From a virus: 64,000 nt of DNA. The notes beneath the pieces were generated by a model. The model was not told the DNA's origin, searched no databases, and was given only the letters and a program-made list of their open reading frames with translations. A program made the translations under genes and the position numbers. Below, in pieces: positions 47 to 31,982 of the stretch (within the stretch, counting starts at the first letter, position 1; every line of letters begins with the position of its first letter). The stretch is taken from IMG/VR virus record IMGVR_UViG_3300036770_002165, positions 1-64,000 of that record; one strand, written 5' to 3'.

Positions 47-823
47 TTAGAACCGGCCTCGTTGAGTCCGGGAACTTAGTAGCCTGTCACGCATCTTTAC
101 GTATTGATCCATCGGCATATTGCGGATATCCTCCGCGGTCAACGTTTGGTATTCCTGTTGGTTTTCCAGTGGCCCAGTTGGGGGAGCCGTAATTGGAGCC
201 CCCTTAGGACGAGCTGGCTGGCTCGCCCTCTGGATTGATTCGATTATAGCATTACTACGCTCACGAAGTACAGAAATGCTATTTTCGATCTCATCCTCAG
301 TATTCCCAGTAATTAGATCACGAAGCTCAGGAATAATAGATTCCTGCTCATCGTGAAGCCGCCGCTGCCGGTAGCTCTCTAGCTGCTGCAAATACCGCTC
401 TTTTTCGAGGAGAGCGTCCTGGGCCTGGCGCTGCTGCTCAAGCTCCGAGAACTTACGTCCCCACTCCTCTTCGACCTGGTTAATACGCTGGTTGAACTCA
501 TCTTCCTTCTTAGTAAGAAGTTCCTTAGCGGAGAGCTCTTCCATCTCACGCTGGCGGAGAAGCTCTGCTTCCTTACGGGCGCGCTCCTCGGCTTCCTTGA
601 TGGCCTTCTCGCGCTCCTGGCTTAGGATGTTCAACTGCTCTTCCATGGCCTTGACTCGGCCATCTGCGTCCTCAAGACGCTTGTACATTTTATCCTTTTC
701 CTGCTGACGGATCTTGTGGACCTCGTCCTCTGAGAAAAGCTTGGTGTTCTCCTGCTTCACCTCGGCCTGGGGGGCCGGATCTACGGGAATCTGAATACCA
801 TCTTCGATGGTTTGCTTAGCCAT
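47..823 (-). CDS. Capsid scaffolding protein
   Basis: 258 aa, E/K/Q/R-rich coiled coil, follows portal, C-terminal tail LTAEDIRNMPMDQYVKMR typical of scaffolds. Confidence 0.7.
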   Translation of the reverse strand: MAKQTIEDGIQIPVDPAPQAEVKQENTKLFSEDEVHKIRQQEKDKMYKRLEDADGRVKAMEEQLNILSQEREKAIKEAEERARKEAELLRQREMEELSAKELLTKKEDEFNQRINQVEEEWGRKFSELEQQRQAQDALLEKERYLQQLESYRQRRLHDEQESIIPELRDLITGNTEDEIENSISVLRERSNAIIESIQRASQPARPKGAPITAPPTGPLENQQEYQTLTAEDIRNMPMDQYVKMRDRLLSSRTQRGRF

Positions 824-7780: not shown

Positions 7781-8914
7781 TCAGGTCTTAATAATATAGT
7801 TGACCACCAACGAGGGCTGAACGTGGGGGATTGTAGAAGCTGCGGGTAGAGAGTTAGTGATATTAGCTTCGTGTGAGTGGCCACCAGAACTGGGGATACT
7901 TAGCGTGTGGGTATGCCCCTGACTTGCATTTCCAGAAGACCCACTGTGGCTGTGGTTGTCCAGGTCTTGGGTTTGGCCCGCTAAAGATCCGGTGCCATTT
8001 AAACCGATAGGCCCAGTACCAAATCCACTCCCCGTTCCACCGATGTCAAAGAAGTTTACGGTGTGTTTGTGCTTTCCTCCGGAAAGAGAAACGGAGTGAC
8101 TATGGGTTTGACTTTGGTCTCCAGTAGTCACCTGGTCATGGGGGTGGGCACCCTGTCCAGTAAAGGTTATGCTATGAGCGTGTCCTGGTAGCTGAACTTG
8201 GTTTGTGTTTGGTGCGGGTGCTCCCCCAATCAAGGAGGTATCAGCCCTACCAACTTTTCCTCCTAAAACACCAAAGTTAGCGTTACCGGATTCAAATCCC
8301 GCTGGAACACGACCACGAAGATCTGGAACGTTAAACTGCGCGGGGTTAGTAGTTGTAGTGTAAGAAGTTCCTATGGCTGTAAACAGCGCTGAGTATGTCG
8401 ATCTTGAAATTGCTTGTCCGTCACACAAAAAGAACCCGCCAGGAAGCTCTACGCCGCTAAGGGCGGTTCCGGCAAAAGGAAGAATTGTCCCAGTTGGAAC
8501 AACGGCACCGCTGCTTGAAGACGCCGCAGCCCAACGTACACCTACTGATTGAGTGGAGTCCGCAACAAGAACAGAACCGTTAGCTCCTACGGGAAGGCGT
8601 GCGTAGGTATCTGGGCCTGCGCCGACGATCAAGTCACCAGGTGCGTCAATGGAATCTGCGGTAACTACGAATGAAGTGTCGATACCAAGAGTTGCCTGTC
8701 CAGAGGTTGCGCCTCCGGTAAGACCGGTACCTGCGATAACAGCCGTTATATCACCAGCTGCCGCTACTGGGAGGCTGTCCCAGGCAGTAATGCCGTCACC
8801 AAACTTTATGACCTTTGTGTCGCTTTCAAACCCCAGTTCGCCCTCTGCGAGAACGGGGTTAGCTGAGGACCACTCCGTCGAGGTTCCTCGGCGGAATTGA
8901 ATTCTTACGGCCAT
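7781..8914 (-). CDS. Tail fibre with Mtd_N-like N-terminus, tail-collar domain and HxH needle
   Basis: IQFRRGT..EW...NPVLAEGELG, collar PTGTILPFAG..GFFLCDG..FNVPDLRGRV, seven HxH motifs, C-terminal VNYIIK. Confidence 0.85.
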   Translation of the reverse strand: MAVRIQFRRGTSTEWSSANPVLAEGELGFESDTKVIKFGDGITAWDSLPVAAAGDITAVIAGTGLTGGATSGQATLGIDTSFVVTADSIDAPGDLIVGAGPDTYARLPVGANGSVLVADSTQSVGVRWAAASSSSGAVVPTGTILPFAGTALSGVELPGGFFLCDGQAISRSTYSALFTAIGTSYTTTTNPAQFNVPDLRGRVPAGFESGNANFGVLGGKVGRADTSLIGGAPAPNTNQVQLPGHAHSITFTGQGAHPHDQVTTGDQSQTHSHSVSLSGGKHKHTVNFFDIGGTGSGFGTGPIGLNGTGSLAGQTQDLDNHSHSGSSGNASQGHTHTLSIPSSGGHSHEANITNSLPAASTIPHVQPSLVVNYIIKT

Positions 8915-23399: not shown

Positions 23400-23415
23400 G
23401 TAACGATTATACCAG

Positions 23416-23489
23416 TGCCGGGTACGGGAGTTGAACCCGTCTACGAGTGTTTATAAGACACCTTGCGTCAACCGGACGCATCACCCGGC
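23416..23489 (-). tRNA. tRNA-Ile, anticodon UAU
   Basis: Cloverleaf: acceptor GCCGGGT/ACCCGGC+A, D stem GCGTC/GACGC, anticodon arm GGTGT-CTTATAA-ACACT, T arm ACGGG-TTCAACT-CCCGT; CCA not encoded. Confidence 0.85.
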
Positions 23490-24857: not shown

Positions 24858-26501
24858 TCAGATTTTGCGAGATTCTGATGGTGAGTGGTGCGCCTCTACC
24901 TCTTCAGCGTGCTCAACGCTGTCATAAACACGCAAAATCCAGATGCAAGGATCGTTTTCCCAGAATTCGTCGTACTCTTTAGCCGACATTGGGACTCCAT
25001 CGTGGGTTTCACACACCATTGGGCCCACAAAACCGTTGTCAATCCCGTACTTTAACCACTCATTGAACTCCATTTTGAGTCCCCTCCTATTGTCCCGTGC
25101 AGCAACTCCCACTGCCGTGGATGAAACTACCCGATTTTGTGACCGTGTTGCAACCAGGTCCACAACCTTGGATGCTTGATTCGGGAATAGTAACGTCTCC
25201 CTCCTCATTCATCACGGTATATGGGTTGACCGCGCTCTGTGGCATATAGAAACCGGGCTGGGCCTTGGTCTTCTTTTGACGCTTTGCCAGCTTCTTACGG
25301 TACATCTGGGCTTCGTAATCCTCTTTAGAGGAGTACTCGCCGTCATCCTCTCCGTAGCCACGAACAAAGTAGGCCATGATCAGTAGTCGCCCATCCGCTT
25401 CCCAAGCTTTGAGACGCCGTAGCCAATGGCCGCACCGGCGATGGCCCCCTTGATGCCGCCGGGAACCTTGTCTGCGTCGGCCAAAACCCCAAAGCTGGGG
25501 TTGTCACCAGTACCTAAGCCAGTACCAAGGGCGTAACCGGCAGCTCCGGCGCTTAAGGCAAGCACGTTGCGGTCGAGAGTTTCCTTAACACCCTGACGGC
25601 TGATGATCGATGGCACTGTTGGCTTACGCGTTACAAGGTGCTGGACATACGGATCCATACTGCGCTTTCCAGCATGAACAGCTCGGCCTCGGTGATCTTG
25701 TGCCATATTTGCTCCTTCGACTCTTCTATTGTAGCCAAAACCGCGACCCCAAATTTTTCACGCCACCTAGAAATACCTAACTACCAGGTGATACATGTTA
25801 TTTATTGGGGTTTTCAAGGATTGTATCATTCATGATAGCAATCCATAGTTACGGTTAGTGAACTATAACGTCAGCTTACCTTTTCCTAGGTAACGGCTTA
25901 TCCAAATGACGGAATAAGTCGACCTTAGCAGGCATAAACCTGAACAAATGCAGTGTCAGATATACCCAGAATCCTAATACCGCCCAACGGCCTGTCTTAT
26001 GCCGTGACCCCCTGTGGAAAGTAGACGACAGTGTGGATAACCCTGTCGCCATGGCTAGGACATCATAAACCAACACATACAGGGCAATACCGCCCCACGC
26101 CATCGGCCCAGCCTTAGATCTAAGCGTCATGTGTCCTTAGAGGGTGTCCCTGAGGGAGCATCACGCGCTTCTTGCCAGCTTTGGTACCGGCTACGTGTTC
26201 GACAGCACCAGTCTGTGGATTAACACGGGTACGCCCACCGGCGCTACCGCTACCTTTACGCTTGCTCTTCCCCATGAGCCCCCCCCTAAATATCCCAACT
26301 ACCAGCGTCCATACGGGAACGCACCGCATCACGAATACCTTGTTTTTCAGTAATAAGCTTCTGCTTCTTGGCACGCCAGGTAGGTGGCGATTCAGAGTGG
26401 ATAACACCACCATAGCGCGACTCAAGGTTATTAATACGCTTATTAACAGACCCAAGGGCTTTATAGAGCTGTTGGTTGTTCAAAGCTTCGTATGCTGCCA
26501 T
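24858..26501 (-). CDS. Six small hypothetical genes (24858-25073, 25087-25377, 25380-25706, 25876-26130, 26120-26275, 26286-26501)
   Basis: Co-oriented small ORFs; 25876-26130 has two TM helices; 26501 start is leaderless (TGGTAATCT + 6 nt + ATG). Confidence 0.5.
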
Positions 26502-26514
26502 AACCCAAGATTAC

Positions 26515-26570
26515 CAGAATAGGGCTACTTACGGTAGCGCGCGTTTACTTCGTAGTTCAGAATAGGGCTA
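26515..26570. repeat. 13-bp direct repeat CAGAATAGGGCTA x2
   Basis: Copies at 26515-26527 and 26558-26570. Confidence 0.7.
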
Positions 26571-26859
26571 TTCAGCAGTTGAGCGTTCCTTGGGGCCCGG
26601 GTACAGCCCCCCCTTCGGGTGGGTGCGCCTCACCTAATGATAGGGGTACACACCGGTAGCCTAGCCGTGTGCGTGTGCCTATCCTAACATTAGTCCCTGT
26701 CCCTATGTGGGACTGTGGTGGTCGAGCGCCCATCGAATAGTAGTGGCCTTCGTCCTAACGGAGTTCTAAGAGGCGCGCCCCTAGGCAGGGCGTGTGACCT
26801 ACCCACCACAGGAGAGACACAGGACAGGGCGGGGTATCCCCACTTGGGAGTCCCCCAGG

Positions 26860-26954
26860 TTATCCACAGCCCTTGTGGAAGTTATCCACAGGCTACTCAT
26901 AGTTATCCACAGGCCTAGACCTGGGCCTATGAGTTATCCACAGGGTTATCCACA
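26860..26954 (+). promoter_or_regulatory. Cluster of five perfect co-oriented DnaA boxes (TTATCCACA)
   Basis: Starts at 26860, 26882, 26903, 26934, 26946 in the divergent intergenic region. Confidence 0.85.
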
Positions 26955-27037
26955 GGGCTGTGGCCAGGCCTAACATTAGGTAACGGTCATCGGGAGTTGC
27001 TATCGCCAACCCAACCCATGTTCTAAGGAGGAACATC

Positions 27038-27610
27038 ATGGCAACAGCAACACTCACCCCGAAGTACCAGCCGGTGCTCAACCTCGAAGCAAGCGAGGCG
27101 ATCAAGGTCGTCTTTGCCGCCGCTGACAAGGTCAAGGCACTCAAGGCCAGCCTGCGCGAGGGCATCACGGCGTACAACCAGACTCTGTCTGTGTTGGGTT
27201 CCGTGTATCTCGCATCGGATCTGGCCAAGGCAGACGGTATGTCGGCCAAGTCCATCGCCGCCCTTGCTGGGCGCGACGATGAGCAGCAGACACGTTACTA
27301 CCTGCGTAACGGCTGGATTCAGGCCCGTTTGGTCAACGATGGAAAGACCGCCCCGGCGGCTATCCAGACGCAGATCAACAAGGTTGCCCAGCAGGGCAAC
27401 GGTCTGACTCTCAGCCGTGTCGATGAGATCATCAAGGATCTGGTCGACAAGGGTGGTTCGTGGGCCGACTTCGTCTCTGCCGTCAAGGCTGAGACCGACA
27501 AGGTCAATGCCAAGGTCGAGCGCGCCCTCAATGCGCTCGAAGACGCCGACAGCCTGGACGCGGGCCAACTCGCCCGTCTCCAGTTGTTGGTCAGCAAGCA
27601 CACCAAGTAA
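27038..27610 (+). CDS. First early gene, helical Ala/Lys-rich hypothetical protein
   Basis: 190 aa, strong RBS TAAGGAGG, strongly C/G-ending codons. Confidence 0.8.
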   Translation: MATATLTPKYQPVLNLEASEAIKVVFAAADKVKALKASLREGITAYNQTLSVLGSVYLASDLAKADGMSAKSIAALAGRDDEQQTRYYLRNGWIQARLVNDGKTAPAAIQTQINKVAQQGNGLTLSRVDEIIKDLVDKGGSWADFVSAVKAETDKVNAKVERALNALEDADSLDAGQLARLQLLVSKHTK

Positions 27611-27778
27611 CTCTTGGTGACCGTACCTAATCGTTAGGCCACGACCTGGGGGGCTGCCTAGTGGGGATACCTCAACCGACCTAACCAACATGGTTGGGCC
27701 GGGCGTGTGTAGGCAGGGAGCCTGATTGTAAGGCGCTCTTACCTGACCGATAGCGCCCGGCCTAATCATTAGGGACAA

Positions 27779-27809
27779 GACGGGTGCGCGCCGCAACCGG
27801 GCGCCCGTC
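27779..27809 (+). ncRNA. CCGCAAY-loop hairpin, copy 1 (others 29866-29898, 33394-33426; degenerate near 37365-37396 and 44828-44850)
   Basis: 12-13 bp stems with compensatory changes and G.U pairs around a conserved 7-nt loop. Confidence 0.7.
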
Positions 27810-27862
27810 TAATCATTAGGTCGATGTGCTGTGTAGTGTCTCCGGCAGAAACGGAGTACACA

Positions 27863-28520
27863 ATGGACACAATCATCTTCACCGAAGAGGGGCGCGAGTG
27901 CCTGCGTAAGGCCCGTGCCCTTGTTACCGCAGCCGTGCGGGCGGAGAACACCTTCGCCAAGCGCATGACTGTCTTCTCCCTCTTCGCTATGTCGGAGGAG
28001 GAGTTCACGGCGAAAGAGACCGAGCGCGCCTCTGGCCTCGCCCTGTTCACGGGTGAGATCACCACGCTCATCGATGCCCTGACGGGCGATCACTGACCAA
28101 CACAACCCGTCGGAGGCACTCCACAGCACATCGGTCTAACATTAGGTCGTACACTGTCACGGTGGCATCGCCACTATCCTCTGAGGAGGAAGGAGAACCA
28201 CCATGAGCAAAGTGATTAGCGATGCCAAGCGGGCGCTCAACCGAGTGCTCGCTTACGAGCAGAACCAGCATCTCGTCCTGCGTGACGAGGTGGCCCGACA
28301 GATGGAGGCCGCCAACGAGATGGTGCGTCTGGGCAATGCCCTGACCGCCTACCGTGGGCGACTGTCCAAGAAGGCCGTGGTCACCGCTGGTTCCGATCTG
28401 GGATCGATCACCCTCAGCGTCGAGGGTGACGAGACTCTGCTCGAAGAAATCAAGAGGGCCAAGAACGCGGCCTTCCGTCTCGCCAACCGCTTCGCAGCCA
28501 ACGCTGCGGCCAACCTGTAA
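27863..28520 (+). CDS. Two hypothetical early proteins (27863-28096, 28203-28520)
   Basis: RBS GGAG/AAGGAG, biased codon usage. Confidence 0.7.
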
Positions 28521-28567
28521 CTAACCGACAGGCGGTGCCACCATGAGAGTGTACGGCCTAATCATTA

Positions 28568-28666
28568 GGCATTGACTGCCGACGTGGGCAGTCACCTTGG
28601 GCGGGTTACAACGATAGTTGTACTTGAGGGAAACCAGGGTGACTGTCCTCGTGGGCAATCGGTGCC
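28568..28666 (+). ncRNA. 33-bp RNA stem-loop
   Basis: 28568-28600 pairs with 28634-28666 with 3 mismatches and 4 G.U pairs. Confidence 0.7.
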
Positions 28667-28779
28667 CAGCCGCTACGGCGGATTAGTTGCTAGCCAGCGT
28701 GTGCTGACTGGTGAAAGGGTGAGGACAATGTGAGCGCAGCACGCTCAGTCCTGGGCATGACAATGAACATAACTGCCCG

Positions 28780-28854
28780 GCCCCCGTACTCAGATGGGAG
28801 TGACGTCTAATCATTAGACGTTTGTAGGTTCGAATCCTACCGAGGGTGCGACCA
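28780..28854 (+). ncRNA. tRNA-like element with aberrant anticodon arm
   Basis: Perfect T arm GTAGG-TTCGAAT-CCTAC, acceptor 6/7 paired, short D arm CTC/GAG, 9-bp arm GACGTCTAA-TCA-TTAGACGTT. Confidence 0.6.
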
Positions 28855-28974
28855 TCAAATGGTGCGAGGAGGGACAACAATCTCCCTTCGGTGTCAATGG
28901 GGCCTCACCAGCCGTGAATGGTTCGACCTGGGTATGTCGTAAAACTGCCCACCCTAATCATTAGTCACTAGGAG

Positions 28975-31204
28975 GTGACAGTAATGACACTGGAAGAGAT
29001 CAAAGAGTTCATCTCTCTTCTGGAGAGTGAGACTCCGACCGATCACTTCGGCTGGTTGCGTCTTCGAAAAGACGTCCTGACCTGCCGTGTGTGGTTGGAT
29101 CAGGTGCCACCGCCGACACCTGTGTGTTGGGCAGAGGTCGACCTCGAACGCATCCTCGCCAAGGCGAATGCGGCAATCACGGGGAAGGCAGCCTCTCGGT
29201 GGAGCGGGCTGTGCCTCGGCCACCACTAACCACTAGGGAGAAACCAAATGGGTGACAAACTCAGAGACGAAACGCTGGACGATGTGCCCTTGTGGCGCAT
29301 CCAGTGTGTCAAGGGCAAGGCTGGCGATGGTGGCGTCGTAGTGAACACGATCTACGCCACGAAGAAGTGGGAGCGTGTACAGCATGTACTGGACGATCAC
29401 TTCGACAACCCTGACCCACGGAAAGAGTCGTATTACCTTCGAGTCACACGACTCGTGGCGATCGACCAAGAAGAGTTCCCGCTGGGAACCTAATCATTAG
29501 GGAGGAAATCATGGCAGACAAGGTACTTGTCAGCACGACAGTGCTTCGCATGGTCGACAGTGCTCTGGCGAAGTACGAGAACCACTTCGCCAACTGTTTG
29601 GACACCATCTCAGAGGTGAAGTTCAAACTCCTGTCAGATCCGGGGGCAACCCTGGTGATGAAGGCAGCCAACATCAGAGAGGGCGACCTGATCCACGAAC
29701 GAGAGTCGGTCATGTCGGTCAGGGCGCTCGTTCAGGATGCGCTCAACCAAGAGGCTGAGTGGGAGCCGTACTACACACGGTGAGACTTTGGGAGTTGCCC
29801 GACCCCAGCGCAAGCGAAGGGCGCACTGCTCACCCCCAGCAGTAGCGACCATCGGGCAAGATCTGGGACGGCGGTGCGCCGCAACCGTGCCGCCGTCCAG
29901 ATGCGCCTAATACTAGGCGTACCCAACAAACAGAAAGGAGGCCACCGTGGCCTTTACTGTTCGAAAGCCCGTCAAGGGCTCGGGAAAGTACCCTGTGTGG
30001 GCTCAAGGTATCACGCAGGACATGGATCTCCTCCAGCGGGAGATCCTGTACACGCTCAAGTTGTTGGAGCGTGGGCGTAAGGCGGTGGTTCGCCAGTGAA
30101 CCGCCGCAGACAGAAGCGCCTAATCACTAGCCTGGCGCACCGGCTCCGTCGCCTGATGGAGCAAGAGGAAGCATACGGCGACGAACTCTCCGTCGTGGAG
30201 ATGTCGTCGTTCTACTCAACCATTCAGGCGGTGGCGTTTGCCATTGCCCGTGGTGACGAACGCAAGGCCGAGCAGTTCATCATGGCGGTCGAAATGGAGG
30301 CCCGAGTATGGGAATGATCGTCGGACTCATCGGGCTGCTGTTCTTCAGTTTCCTGCTCACCGGCCTAATCGTTAGGCTGCCCCAGATGTTCAGGGACTTC
30401 CAGGAAGTCCGTGACCGCTGGGACGATGACTCCTTCTGGGACGACGACTACCGCAAGGAGTTGTAATGCAGGAAGACTTCATCAAGACCTTCGGGCCTTG
30501 TGTTGTCATTCTCCATGGTCCGTCAATGGAAAAGCATTACGGGCCATTTGAGTCTGGCAAACAAGCGATCGAATGGATGAACCATCAAATCATCGTCGGT
30601 AATGTTCGCAACTTCTCTGTTGATCGGTTGCGTACACCGTACGTTGAGAGAGCCTACGATGACTGGTGGGCAGGCGACTGGCACCAGATCAACATCGTGG
30701 ATCAGGAGTACCCCAAGGACTCCTGGGTCAAGACCAAGCGCCGAGTCTGGCGACGCTGGCGGCGTCAGGCAGACAAGGTGTTGGAACAACTCGTCTAATC
30801 ATTAGACAGAAGGGAGCACCGTGAACATCAAGGTGTCACGCACAGGGCTAATCGACGCCCTCAAGAAGTCGATCAAGACTCGTGAGGCTGCTATTGCCGA
30901 ACAAGAGAAGGCTCACAAGGAGTTCGAGAAGGCTCAGAAGGAGTACGAGGATAAGGTCCTCGCTTACGTCACCTCTGGCAAGGCGACCAACCCCAAGTTG
31001 TTCGTCCGATACGACGGTGAAGCCACTGTGACTGTCGAACTTCCTGCGGCCCTCAAGAAGGGCCCCAAGCAGAAGGATGTGCGCAGGTACTACAGCGTCC
31101 ACGAGATCCAGGAGATCAAGTCGGCTATCGCCCTGCTCGAACTGTCCGATGAGGACACCATCTCTGCGTCTGCGTACAAGAACGTGGCGCAGTACCTCGC
31201 CTAA
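28975..31204 (+). CDS. Run of small early hypothetical genes (28975-29229, 29248-29493, 29511-29783, 29947-30099, 30096-30317, 30308-30466, 30466-30798, 30821-31204)
   Basis: RBS or translational coupling for each; 29947 and 30308 ORFs read manually, the latter has an N-terminal TM helix. Confidence 0.65.
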
Positions 31205-31271: not shown

Positions 31272-31982
31272 GTGACCATTACAGAAACTTTGCCGCAGTG
31301 CTGGCAAGACGTGGCAGACGCAGTGGCTGCTGGTATCAAGAACATCATCCTGTACGGGCCTCCTGGTACAGGCAAGACGTTCACCGGCATCCACTTCGAG
31401 ACCAACCAGCCAGCACAGCGTGTCGTCTGTAACGAGGACATGACTGCGGCTGACGTGACCGGGTGCTATTTCCCCGGCCCCGACAACCAGTTCGTCTGGA
31501 ACGACGGTGCCGTGCTCAAGGCATGGAAGACGGGTGCTCGTGTCGTGGCTGACGAGATCGACCGTGCGTCTGGTGACGTGCTGTCTCTCTTGCTTGCCAT
31601 GTTCGACTCGCCCGAGTCAGCATCGTGGACCCACCCGTCCACTGGTGAGATCTTCCGTCCGCACGCTGAGTTCAGCGTGTTCATGACCACCAACGTGGAG
31701 GACATGGACGAGTTGCCCACGGCACTCAAGGATCGCTTCCCTGTTGCGATCCGCATCAACCAGCCGCATCCGACTGCTCTGCTGTCGTTGTCGCCTGACC
31801 TCCGTCAGGCTGCCAGCCTCAGTGCTGACCGTCGTGGTGAGCAGCGCATCTCCATGCGTACCTGGAAGGCCTTCGACCAGATGCGCAAGTCCCTCGATGA
31901 CGAGCGTGCTGCCGCTCTCATCTTCCGTGACATGGCTGTCGACGTGCTCGACGCCATTCGCATCAACGCAGTCACCGCCTAA
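31272..31982 (+). CDS. MoxR/CbbQ-like AAA+ ATPase (pair 1)
   Basis: GPPGTGKT, VVADEIDRA, FMTTN, LPTALKDRF. Confidence 0.9.
   Translation: MTITETLPQCWQDVADAVAAGIKNIILYGPPGTGKTFTGIHFETNQPAQRVVCNEDMTAADVTGCYFPGPDNQFVWNDGAVLKAWKTGARVVADEIDRASGDVLSLLLAMFDSPESASWTHPSTGEIFRPHAEFSVFMTTNVEDMDELPTALKDRFPVAIRINQPHPTALLSLSPDLRQAASLSADRRGEQRISMRTWKAFDQMRKSLDDERAAALIFRDMAVDVLDAIRINAVTA

Follow-up and report, generated by a model that had tools for sequence, protein, structure and literature searches.

The tRNA-like element at 28780-28848 of the phage DNA is, on the evidence of its sequence, a remodelled, non-decoding descendant of a tRNA-Arg(UCU) gene that has become fused with a palindrome of the phage's early region. 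Indeed, the element descends from a tRNA-Arg gene of the phage family, lies in the early intergenic location where related phages carry tRNA-Arg genes and has lost its anticodon loop, and UGA is not recoded in this phage. It is non-decoding because a copy of the palindrome has replaced the anticodon loop. The element belongs to a known class, that of tRNA relics and tRNA-like elements, and its origin is an instructive one.

The cloverleaf element and its early-region setting

The source record is a viral genome of 95,597 bp with direct terminal repeats, rated complete, and the window, i.e. the whole stretch of DNA analysed here, corresponds to its first 64 kb. By its sequence, the phage has a distant relative in Streptomyces phage BRock, the large terminases of BRock and its kin sharing 46-47% identity with that of the present phage. 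This BRock-like terminase, together with an actinobacterial DUF732 domain in one early protein and a sigma-70 region-4 domain in another, makes an actinobacterial host likely. Genes are directed leftward until ~27.8 kb and then rightward to ~46 kb. The tRNA-like element sits on the sense strand, inside a 463-nt gap separating two small rightward ORFs (Table 1), and the stretch 28521-28984 (464 nt) folds unusually strongly (z = -5.5). No promoter was found by a sigma-70 promoter scan of positions 26400-30000 of the window. The same intergenic region also contains a large imperfect inverted repeat (28568-28666; 33-nt arms, 79% complementary), which holds a 21-nt sub-repeat present twice.

Table 1. 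Positions in the window of the cloverleaf element, its parts and the neighbouring features
Feature	Position	Strand	Description and basis
tRNA-derived non-decoding cloverleaf	28780..28848	+	69 nt with discriminator G; ARAGORN, Rfam, minimum free energy (MFE) fold, alignments with Arg(TCT) genes
Acceptor stem, 5' strand	28780..28786	+	Pairs with 28841-28847; pair probabilities 0.87-0.94
U8 and A9	28787-28788	+	Sequence
Shortened D arm, CTC / AGATGG / GAG	28789..28800	+	3 bp, or 4 with A9-U22; 6-nt loop retaining GG
Long arm replacing the anticodon arm	28802..28822	+	9-bp stem, 3-nt TCA loop, basal pair G.U
Palindrome CTAATCATTAG, exact 11-mer within the long arm	28807-28817	+	Sequence
Canonical T arm, GTAGG-TTCGAAT-CCTAC	28824..28840	+	Sequence, Rfam tRNA model
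Acceptor stem, 3' strand	28841..28847	+	MFE fold
Discriminator G	28848	+	Sequence
Trailer CGA-CCA	28849..28854	+	CCA 3 nt out of register with the discriminator
Upstream early ORF	28203..28520	+	105 aa, without family assignment
Downstream early ORF	28984..29229	+	81 aa, without family; three homologues known
Palindrome copy	28558..28568	+	Start of the 463-nt intergenic region
Palindrome copy	28954..28964	+	Directly before the next gene's Shine-Dalgarno sequence
Hairpin element, copy 1	28750..28778	+	Stem GGGCA/TGCCC; ends 1 nt 5' of the cloverleaf
Hairpin element, copy 2	28927..28950	+	Ends 3 nt before the next palindrome copy
tRNA-Ile(UAU)	23415-23489	-	40.5 bits; the only canonical tRNA of this phage

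Scoring with ARAGORN, as suggested by a first reading made from the sequence alone (hereafter the sequence-only reading), returned a call of a 70-nt "tRNA-SeC (tca)" at 28780-28849; a sensitive Rfam scan gave a score of 28.7 bits with the tRNA model RF00005, slightly below the 29-bit gathering score, with E = 2.7e-5 across the 95.6-kb genome. At -23.9 kcal/mol, the MFE fold of the 69 nt is the cloverleaf itself; its acceptor, D and T stems and the hairpin core all have pair probabilities of 0.87-1.0. All the parts described in the sequence-only reading, namely the T arm, an acceptor stem with one mismatch, T8-A9, a minimal D arm, a 9-bp stem with apical TCA, a near-absent variable loop and a G-CGA-CCA 3' end, are present at the positions listed in Table 1. 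In the acceptor stem, six of the seven positions are paired, with a C.A mismatch at position 5/68 and a G.U pair at position 1/72, and comparison with the tRNA-Arg of the related genome G003 traces both weakened pairs to bases of the 3' strand. The variable region of the cloverleaf is reduced to one base.

Compared with the canonical tRNA of RF00005, the element thus has the acceptor stem as well as a T stem of 5 bp whose loop follows the T-loop consensus, and narrowly misses the score of at least 29 bits; it has neither an anticodon arm of the standard form (5-bp stem, 7-nt loop, U33, purine at position 37) nor a 4-bp D stem, a standard D loop and a variable region of 4-5 nt. The tRNA likeness of the element is beyond chance. 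No tmRNA or Y-RNA-like Rfam model matched within 28600-29000 at E values up to 10. The CCA of the trailer is probably coincidental as judged from sequence, because among the Arg tRNAs of relatives that were examined a discriminator-adjacent CCA occurs in G005 only. The tRNA-Ile(UAU) gene of this phage is kept in many relatives, with scores of 36-40 bits; a whole-window Rfam scan at gathering thresholds gave zero reports, missing even this gene with its 40.5 bits.

The cloverleaf is bracketed by two copies of a hairpin element. Indeed, the pattern of a 5-bp stem with an 11-16-nt loop occurs exactly twice in the window, versus 0 expected, once on either side of the cloverleaf. Copy 2 is kept in the related contig L135 at 8461-8492 (87.5% identity), and its stem has undergone a compensatory change between the window and L135, from GGGTA/TGCCC to GAGTA/TGCTC. 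That a covarying hairpin stands on both sides of the element hints that the RNA of this locus is organised.

Over 28300-29289, zero differences separate the contigs of three DNA runs belonging to one study, a result that is uninformative on selection or expression. Contigs from two other runs of that study are identical upstream and differ at 13 sites from 29290 on (29290-29469), and a boundary of strain-level recombination or variation lies just 3' of the element locus.

Ancestry among the tRNA-Arg genes of related phages

Relatives were found via the terminase, which yielded hundreds of viral contigs, and tRNAs were searched in 47 of the longer ones. The standard tRNAs of these relatives score 64-76 bits, and three tRNAs with a long variable arm (Leu, Ser) score 51-56 bits. 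Four relatives (G003, G004, G005 and G010) encode in their early region a tRNA-Arg(UCU) of 71-75 bits, on the same strand as the element; in G004 and G005, a tRNA-Met is also encoded ~1.1 kb upstream of the tRNA-Arg(UCU).

Several comparisons point to tRNA-Arg(UCU) as the ancestor: (i) in global alignments of the element with 34 unique tRNAs of the family, the top six are all Arg(UCU) (60-71, versus 59 for the best other isotype), (ii) by distance over the acceptor stem and T arm, the three nearest tRNAs, and four of the five nearest, are Arg(UCU), and (iii) the U34-C40 heptamer of the Arg(UCU) tRNAs is retained, the old anticodon UCU now forming part of the paired 5' side of the long stem. 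The T stem is identical to the T stems of the tRNA-Arg genes of G004, G005, L116 and L135, and the acceptor stem resembles those of the Arg(UCU) genes, that of G003 being the closest. In alignment with the family Arg tRNAs, the element is without G10, three bases of the D loop and positions 25-28. It shares with the Arg(UCU) and Arg(CCU) genes of relatives their early location and strand, and differs from them by having no 7-nt anticodon loop, a shortened D arm, a variable region of 1 nt and a score of 28.7 instead of 71-75 bits.

The genomic position is informative as well. The closest relatives in the early region are L116 and L135, which share 64% identity in the MoxR-like ATPase (31272-31982), contain 16 exact palindrome copies each, and are unique among the relatives in having the palindrome as well as sequence that spans the element region; in G001, the closest palindrome-bearing relative, the sequence breaks ~200 nt into the early region. 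In the corresponding gap between genes, both L116 and L135 encode a normal tRNA-Arg(CCU) of 71.5 bits; it lies ~1.8 kb 5' of the MoxR-like gene, and a palindrome copy ends 4 nt before the 5' end of this tRNA. Furthermore, L135 has a 32-nt block in common with the window just downstream of the element. The position of the Arg(CCU) genes and this block indicate that the element occupies an early intergenic region in which a working Arg tRNA persists in relatives. Two features expected of a relic were therefore found, namely specific homology to a functional tRNA at a comparable place in relatives and the loss of a feature essential to function, the anticodon loop.

Other unusual tRNA-like elements were encountered in relatives and in metagenomes. 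An element of ~120 nt with a perfect acceptor stem and T arm, and ~80 nt between them, is located at 1498-1620 of L113 (minus strand), equivalent to G003:79083-79202; it scores 24.1 bits with the tRNA model and 28.8 bits on the tmRNA-model ends, and it sits at the place of the tRNA-Met of G004 and G005. No homologue of this element was found among 36 other related records, and the idea of a conserved class of remodelled tRNAs in the phage family was dropped, the G003 element being a singleton too. An odd 77-nt tRNA of 32.7 bits, not called by ARAGORN, is located at 1180-1256 of L107 (minus strand), equivalent to G012:57690-57766; its UAU anticodon-like hairpin almost abuts the acceptor strand, and a D-arm-like sequence comes after it. 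An unrelated tRNA-like element of 26.4 bits, at 254-324 (minus strand) of L142 (metagenome contig Ga0124853_1504732), has the same CTC/AGATGG/GAG D arm, a CCA directly after the discriminator and an anticodon arm that folds either with a loop of 8 nt or with a 7-bp stem closing a loop of 4 nt. Finally, a second, more decayed tRNA relic is possibly present at 8498-8579 of L135, downstream of the conserved hairpin element and before the palindrome copy that follows it. The complementary sequences GGGAGG and CCTCCC flank a T-arm-like hairpin there, which has a stem of 7 bp and the loop TTCGTTT; the sole model match, with tRNA-Sec, is weak at 15 bits (E = 3.8), and the z-score of the fold is 0.4.

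The early-region palindrome and the remodelling of the anticodon arm

The palindrome CTAATCATTAG has 11 exact copies in the window, including one with G at its centre, and 31 matches with at most one mismatch on both strands together, versus 0.78 expected. Exact copies of its 9-nt core TAAT(C/G)ATTA are confined to 27.7-38.8 kb of the genome. Two copies (27762-27772 and 27809-27819), 47 bp apart, flank a GC-rich inverted repeat at the junction of the leftward and rightward genes, and this region (27762-27819) is, from its sequence, likely to be an early control region. The palindrome is restricted to a sub-lineage comprising this phage, G001 (copies at 186-196 of L098 and also at 962 and 57598), L116 and L135; zero exact copies are present in G002, G003, G006 and G007, which are complete or near-complete genomes with 84-87% terminase identity.

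When 57 copies from this phage, L116 and L135 were compared, the 11-nt core proved to be conserved as sequence, its centre base being C or G on the sense strand. Pairing of the flanks barely exceeds that of shuffled partners (26 vs 19.5 at the first position and 20 vs 17.1 at the second), and the hypothesis that the palindromes form a family of covarying RNA hairpins was rejected. The bare 4-bp, A/U-rich core would indeed not be stable as an RNA hairpin. The copy in the cloverleaf has five paired flank positions, which is the joint-longest extension of the 57 and the longest by Watson-Crick pairs, and it alone is held in a stable 9-bp stem. Hairpin promoters of the N4 type were also rejected, because a Shine-Dalgarno sequence lies directly 3' of each palindrome copy and a start ~11 nt past the loop would remove it. 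Most simply, the palindrome would be a sequence-specific 11-bp site on double-stranded DNA for an early, possibly dimeric, regulator, in the manner of an operator or stoperator; no palindrome-binding protein was identified. The stoperators of Cluster A mycobacteriophages are asymmetric 13-mers that are bound by a monomeric immunity repressor and occur genome-wide (PMC9283540). On this preferred reading, the palindrome is likewise a short, conserved sequence repeated at gene junctions of an actinophage, but it is symmetric, 11 bp long and limited to ~11 kb of the early region.

In nine of the ten unique Arg(UCU) genes of the family, the stretch from C35 to position 45 already agrees with the palindrome at 8-10 of its 11 bases, in the same register. 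Since the ancestral anticodon arm matched the motif to this extent, the motif was apparently completed in place and not imported. The proposal of the sequence-only reading that a decayed tRNA had been captured by the motif thus comes near to these findings, the decayed tRNA being a descendant of the family tRNA-Arg(UCU), and needs refinement as to the capture. The full 9-11-mer (the 11-mer in Arg(UCU)) occurs once in functional Arg(UCU), Asn and Met tRNAs of unrelated phages, which shows that a working anticodon arm can accommodate the motif. In alignment with the Arg genes of G004 and G005, two substitutions complete the motif, U33 is changed to G, and the variable region has gained 3 nt that pair with the changed 5' side, with the same losses at positions 25-28, at G10 and in the D loop as given above. 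The 3' side of the long arm is the reverse complement of its 5' side except for the terminal G.U pair, as would result from quasipalindrome replication errors templated by a hairpin (PMC8794818, PMC7202029).

From these differences we infer an order and a mechanism of the mutations. In this lineage, the palindrome match would have been completed within the ancestral Arg(UCU) anticodon arm, and later changes (U33 to G, the 3-nt gain and the losses of positions 25-28, G10 and D-loop bases) would have lengthened it to a perfect 9-bp inverted repeat. The conversion of the arm to the palindrome was probably due to hairpin-templated mutation, and one or a few hairpin-templated (quasipalindrome) replication events are a plausible route; a single template switch would explain the change of U33 to G and the 3-nt gain together. 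Template switching makes or perfects hairpins, several linked changes arising at one stroke and removing the imperfections of an inverted repeat (PMC8794818, PMC7202029). The element would display this same imperfect-to-perfect pattern, as deduced from its present sequence. The destruction of the 7-nt anticodon loop left the RNA unable to decode, and the identity elements for ArgRS were probably lost likewise. The feature that is maintained would most likely be the palindrome itself, the remaining cloverleaf being a young relic within the early transcript, whose intact acceptor and T-arm half may still undergo incidental cleavage by RNase P and 3'-end nucleases.

Relic, reuse and decoding, and comparison with known systems

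The element is probably, though by no means surely, a neutral relic of a family tRNA-Arg(UCU) whose anticodon arm has turned into the early-region palindrome. Its 28.7 bits against 64-76 for the standard tRNAs of the family, the two weakened acceptor pairs and three separate indels, and the presence of one-off remodelled tRNAs in G003 and G012 as well, all count in favour of a relic. On the other side are the untouched T arm and the retained GG of the D loop, the ancestral G10-C25 pair, which lost both its partners together, and a clean cloverleaf as the MFE structure, which is more order than random decay predicts, although being picked up by a tRNA finder itself selects for such order. Phage genomes seldom keep dead DNA, which also counts against a relic, as do the strong folding of 28521-28984 and the covarying hairpins on either side.

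The searches for homologues of the remodelled form bear on the same question. In brief, neither blastn with 28300-29300, run against deposited phages, nor tblastn with the 458-aa early protein yielded a match; a pattern scan of IMG/VR for the palindrome plus a T loop found only ordinary Asn, Met, Arg and Cys tRNAs of unrelated phages, plus one match not called by ARAGORN; and of two metagenome scans for the remodelled form, one gave zero matches and the other two unrelated ones. Related loci were sought with the 458-aa protein and with the 81-aa protein family, and none were found, while a scan for the conserved downstream block returned L135's own contig and one chance match only. No RNA runs holding the element sequence were listed, a result without bearing on the choice between relic and reuse. 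The sequence-only reading had inferred either a tRNA mimic or a decayed tRNA: the comparisons agree best with a decayed tRNA-Arg, whereas nothing speaks positively for a selected mimic, whose form is conserved by no homologue detected.

A tentative alternative, with appreciably less in its favour, is that the element has been reused for processing or stability, in which case RNase P and a 3' nuclease would cut the early polycistronic RNA and part the upstream from the downstream messages, the long hairpin merely stabilising the excised RNA. The intact T arm, the D-loop GG, the cloverleaf MFE structure and acceptor pair probabilities of ~0.9 are in line with such a role, as are the location on the sense strand of a highly structured 463-nt intergenic region, the covarying hairpin that ends 1 nt 5' of the predicted RNase P site, the genuine tRNA at a like position in L116 and L135, and the precedent of the plant mitochondrial t-elements (PMC1920247). 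However, the architecture is kept by no homologue in the collections searched, the acceptor stem is weakened by its C.A mismatch and by the G.U pair at 1-72, and the other remodelled tRNAs of the family are likewise one-offs; moreover, a genuine tRNA would do the same job and decode in addition, which leaves the loss of the anticodon loop unexplained. That a small RNA is cut from the early transcript and displays the palindrome as a tRNA-shaped sponge or timer, or acts as a cutting signal, is rather unlikely.

Still less probable is a decoy or sponge, i.e. a tRNA-shaped RNA that would titrate a factor recognising the palindrome, or distract a nuclease of tRNA-Arg or a tRNA-sensing defence. The cloverleaf copy is the sole palindrome copy held in a stable 9-bp stem, and the motif corresponds to positions 35-45 of the type of tRNA-Arg(UCU) found in other phages. 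However, the palindrome family is conserved in sequence and not in structure, its bare core would be unstable as RNA, and in L116 and L135 either C or G can stand at its centre on the sense strand; nor was any defence or nuclease context found nearby. The decoy for anticodon nucleases that the sequence-only reading had entertained is disfavoured, because the element has no mimic of an anticodon loop: the loop has 3 nt, and a fold with a 7-nt loop would be ~10 kcal/mol costlier.

A working decoder, whether a UGA suppressor, a tRNA-Sec or a tRNA-Arg(UCU) acting through an alternative 5-bp stem and 7-nt loop, is highly improbable. The ARAGORN label and the UCA at the apex would speak for the first two. 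However, TGA is the commonest stop, terminating 54 of the 115 genes called crudely, and the standard code (code 11) gives a coding density of 90%, so that a UGA-suppressor or selenocysteine role is untenable; a recoded phage with a suppressor tRNA would have TGA codons in frame within its genes and avoid TGA as a stop, which does not agree with these figures. Whereas the tRNA-Sec model RF01852 is defined by an 8/5 or 9/4 acceptor/T geometry, a 6-bp D stem, a long variable arm and UCA in a 7-nt loop, the element has a 7/5 geometry, a 3-bp D stem, a 1-nt variable region and a 3-nt loop, and it also lacks U33 and a purine at position 37. Decoding of UGA or selenocysteine by the element is thus excluded, the SeC label of ARAGORN reflects the apical UCA only, and the sequence-only reading was right to doubt UGA decoding without U33. 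As for arginine, an alternative register does place UCU within a loop of 7 nt, and changes on both strands relative to the G004 tRNA allow its stem to pair, but this fold reaches only -13.8 vs -23.9 kcal/mol, i.e. ~10 kcal/mol weaker, has G33 and clashes with the D stem, which it overlaps.

A chance likeness, in which the palindrome would stand beside a fortuitous T-arm-like hairpin, agrees with the score below the Rfam gathering threshold, but has practically no probability in view of E = 2.7e-5 per genome, the specific Arg(TCT) resemblance and the matching early intergenic location, and is refuted by the homology to the Arg(TCT) genes of the family. The possibility of an attP or integration relic was dropped, both tRNA halves being present.

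Among known systems, the tRNA pseudogenes and gene fragments of prokaryotes are reported by gene finders while missing functional features (PMC9897764). The element is likewise detected and yet defective, but it is full length and still a cloverleaf, disabled by the remodelling of one arm and not by truncation. Its acceptor and T-arm half is like those of several other non-decoding RNAs. The mascRNA of MALAT1 and the tRNA-like parts of the gammaherpesvirus 68 TMERs are non-decoding, tRNA-shaped cutting signals whose cleavage has been demonstrated. The t-elements of plant mitochondria are non-decoding tRNA-shaped signals for cutting by RNase P and RNase Z in longer transcripts, and their cleavage has been shown experimentally (PMC1920247). 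Compared with the t-elements, mascRNA and the TMERs, the present element is described at the level of its sequence, and its architecture is conserved by no homologue in the collections searched.

For annotation, the ARAGORN "tRNA-SeC(tca)" in this phage should not be recorded as a selenocysteine or suppressor tRNA. The element is a clear case of the loss of a phage tRNA gene without deletion, one arm having become the repeated palindrome that it already nearly matched. The early-region tRNAs of this phage group turn over fast, with Arg-UCU, Arg-CCU, Met or none being present, plus one-off remodelled forms. Should excision and function of the RNA be shown, a bacterial virus would provide a rare example of a processing or decoy RNA that is tRNA-shaped but does not decode. 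If the reuse reading is true, the element would be a bacterial-virus counterpart of the t-elements and mascRNA, derived from a tRNA-Arg arm that resembled a regulator site by chance.
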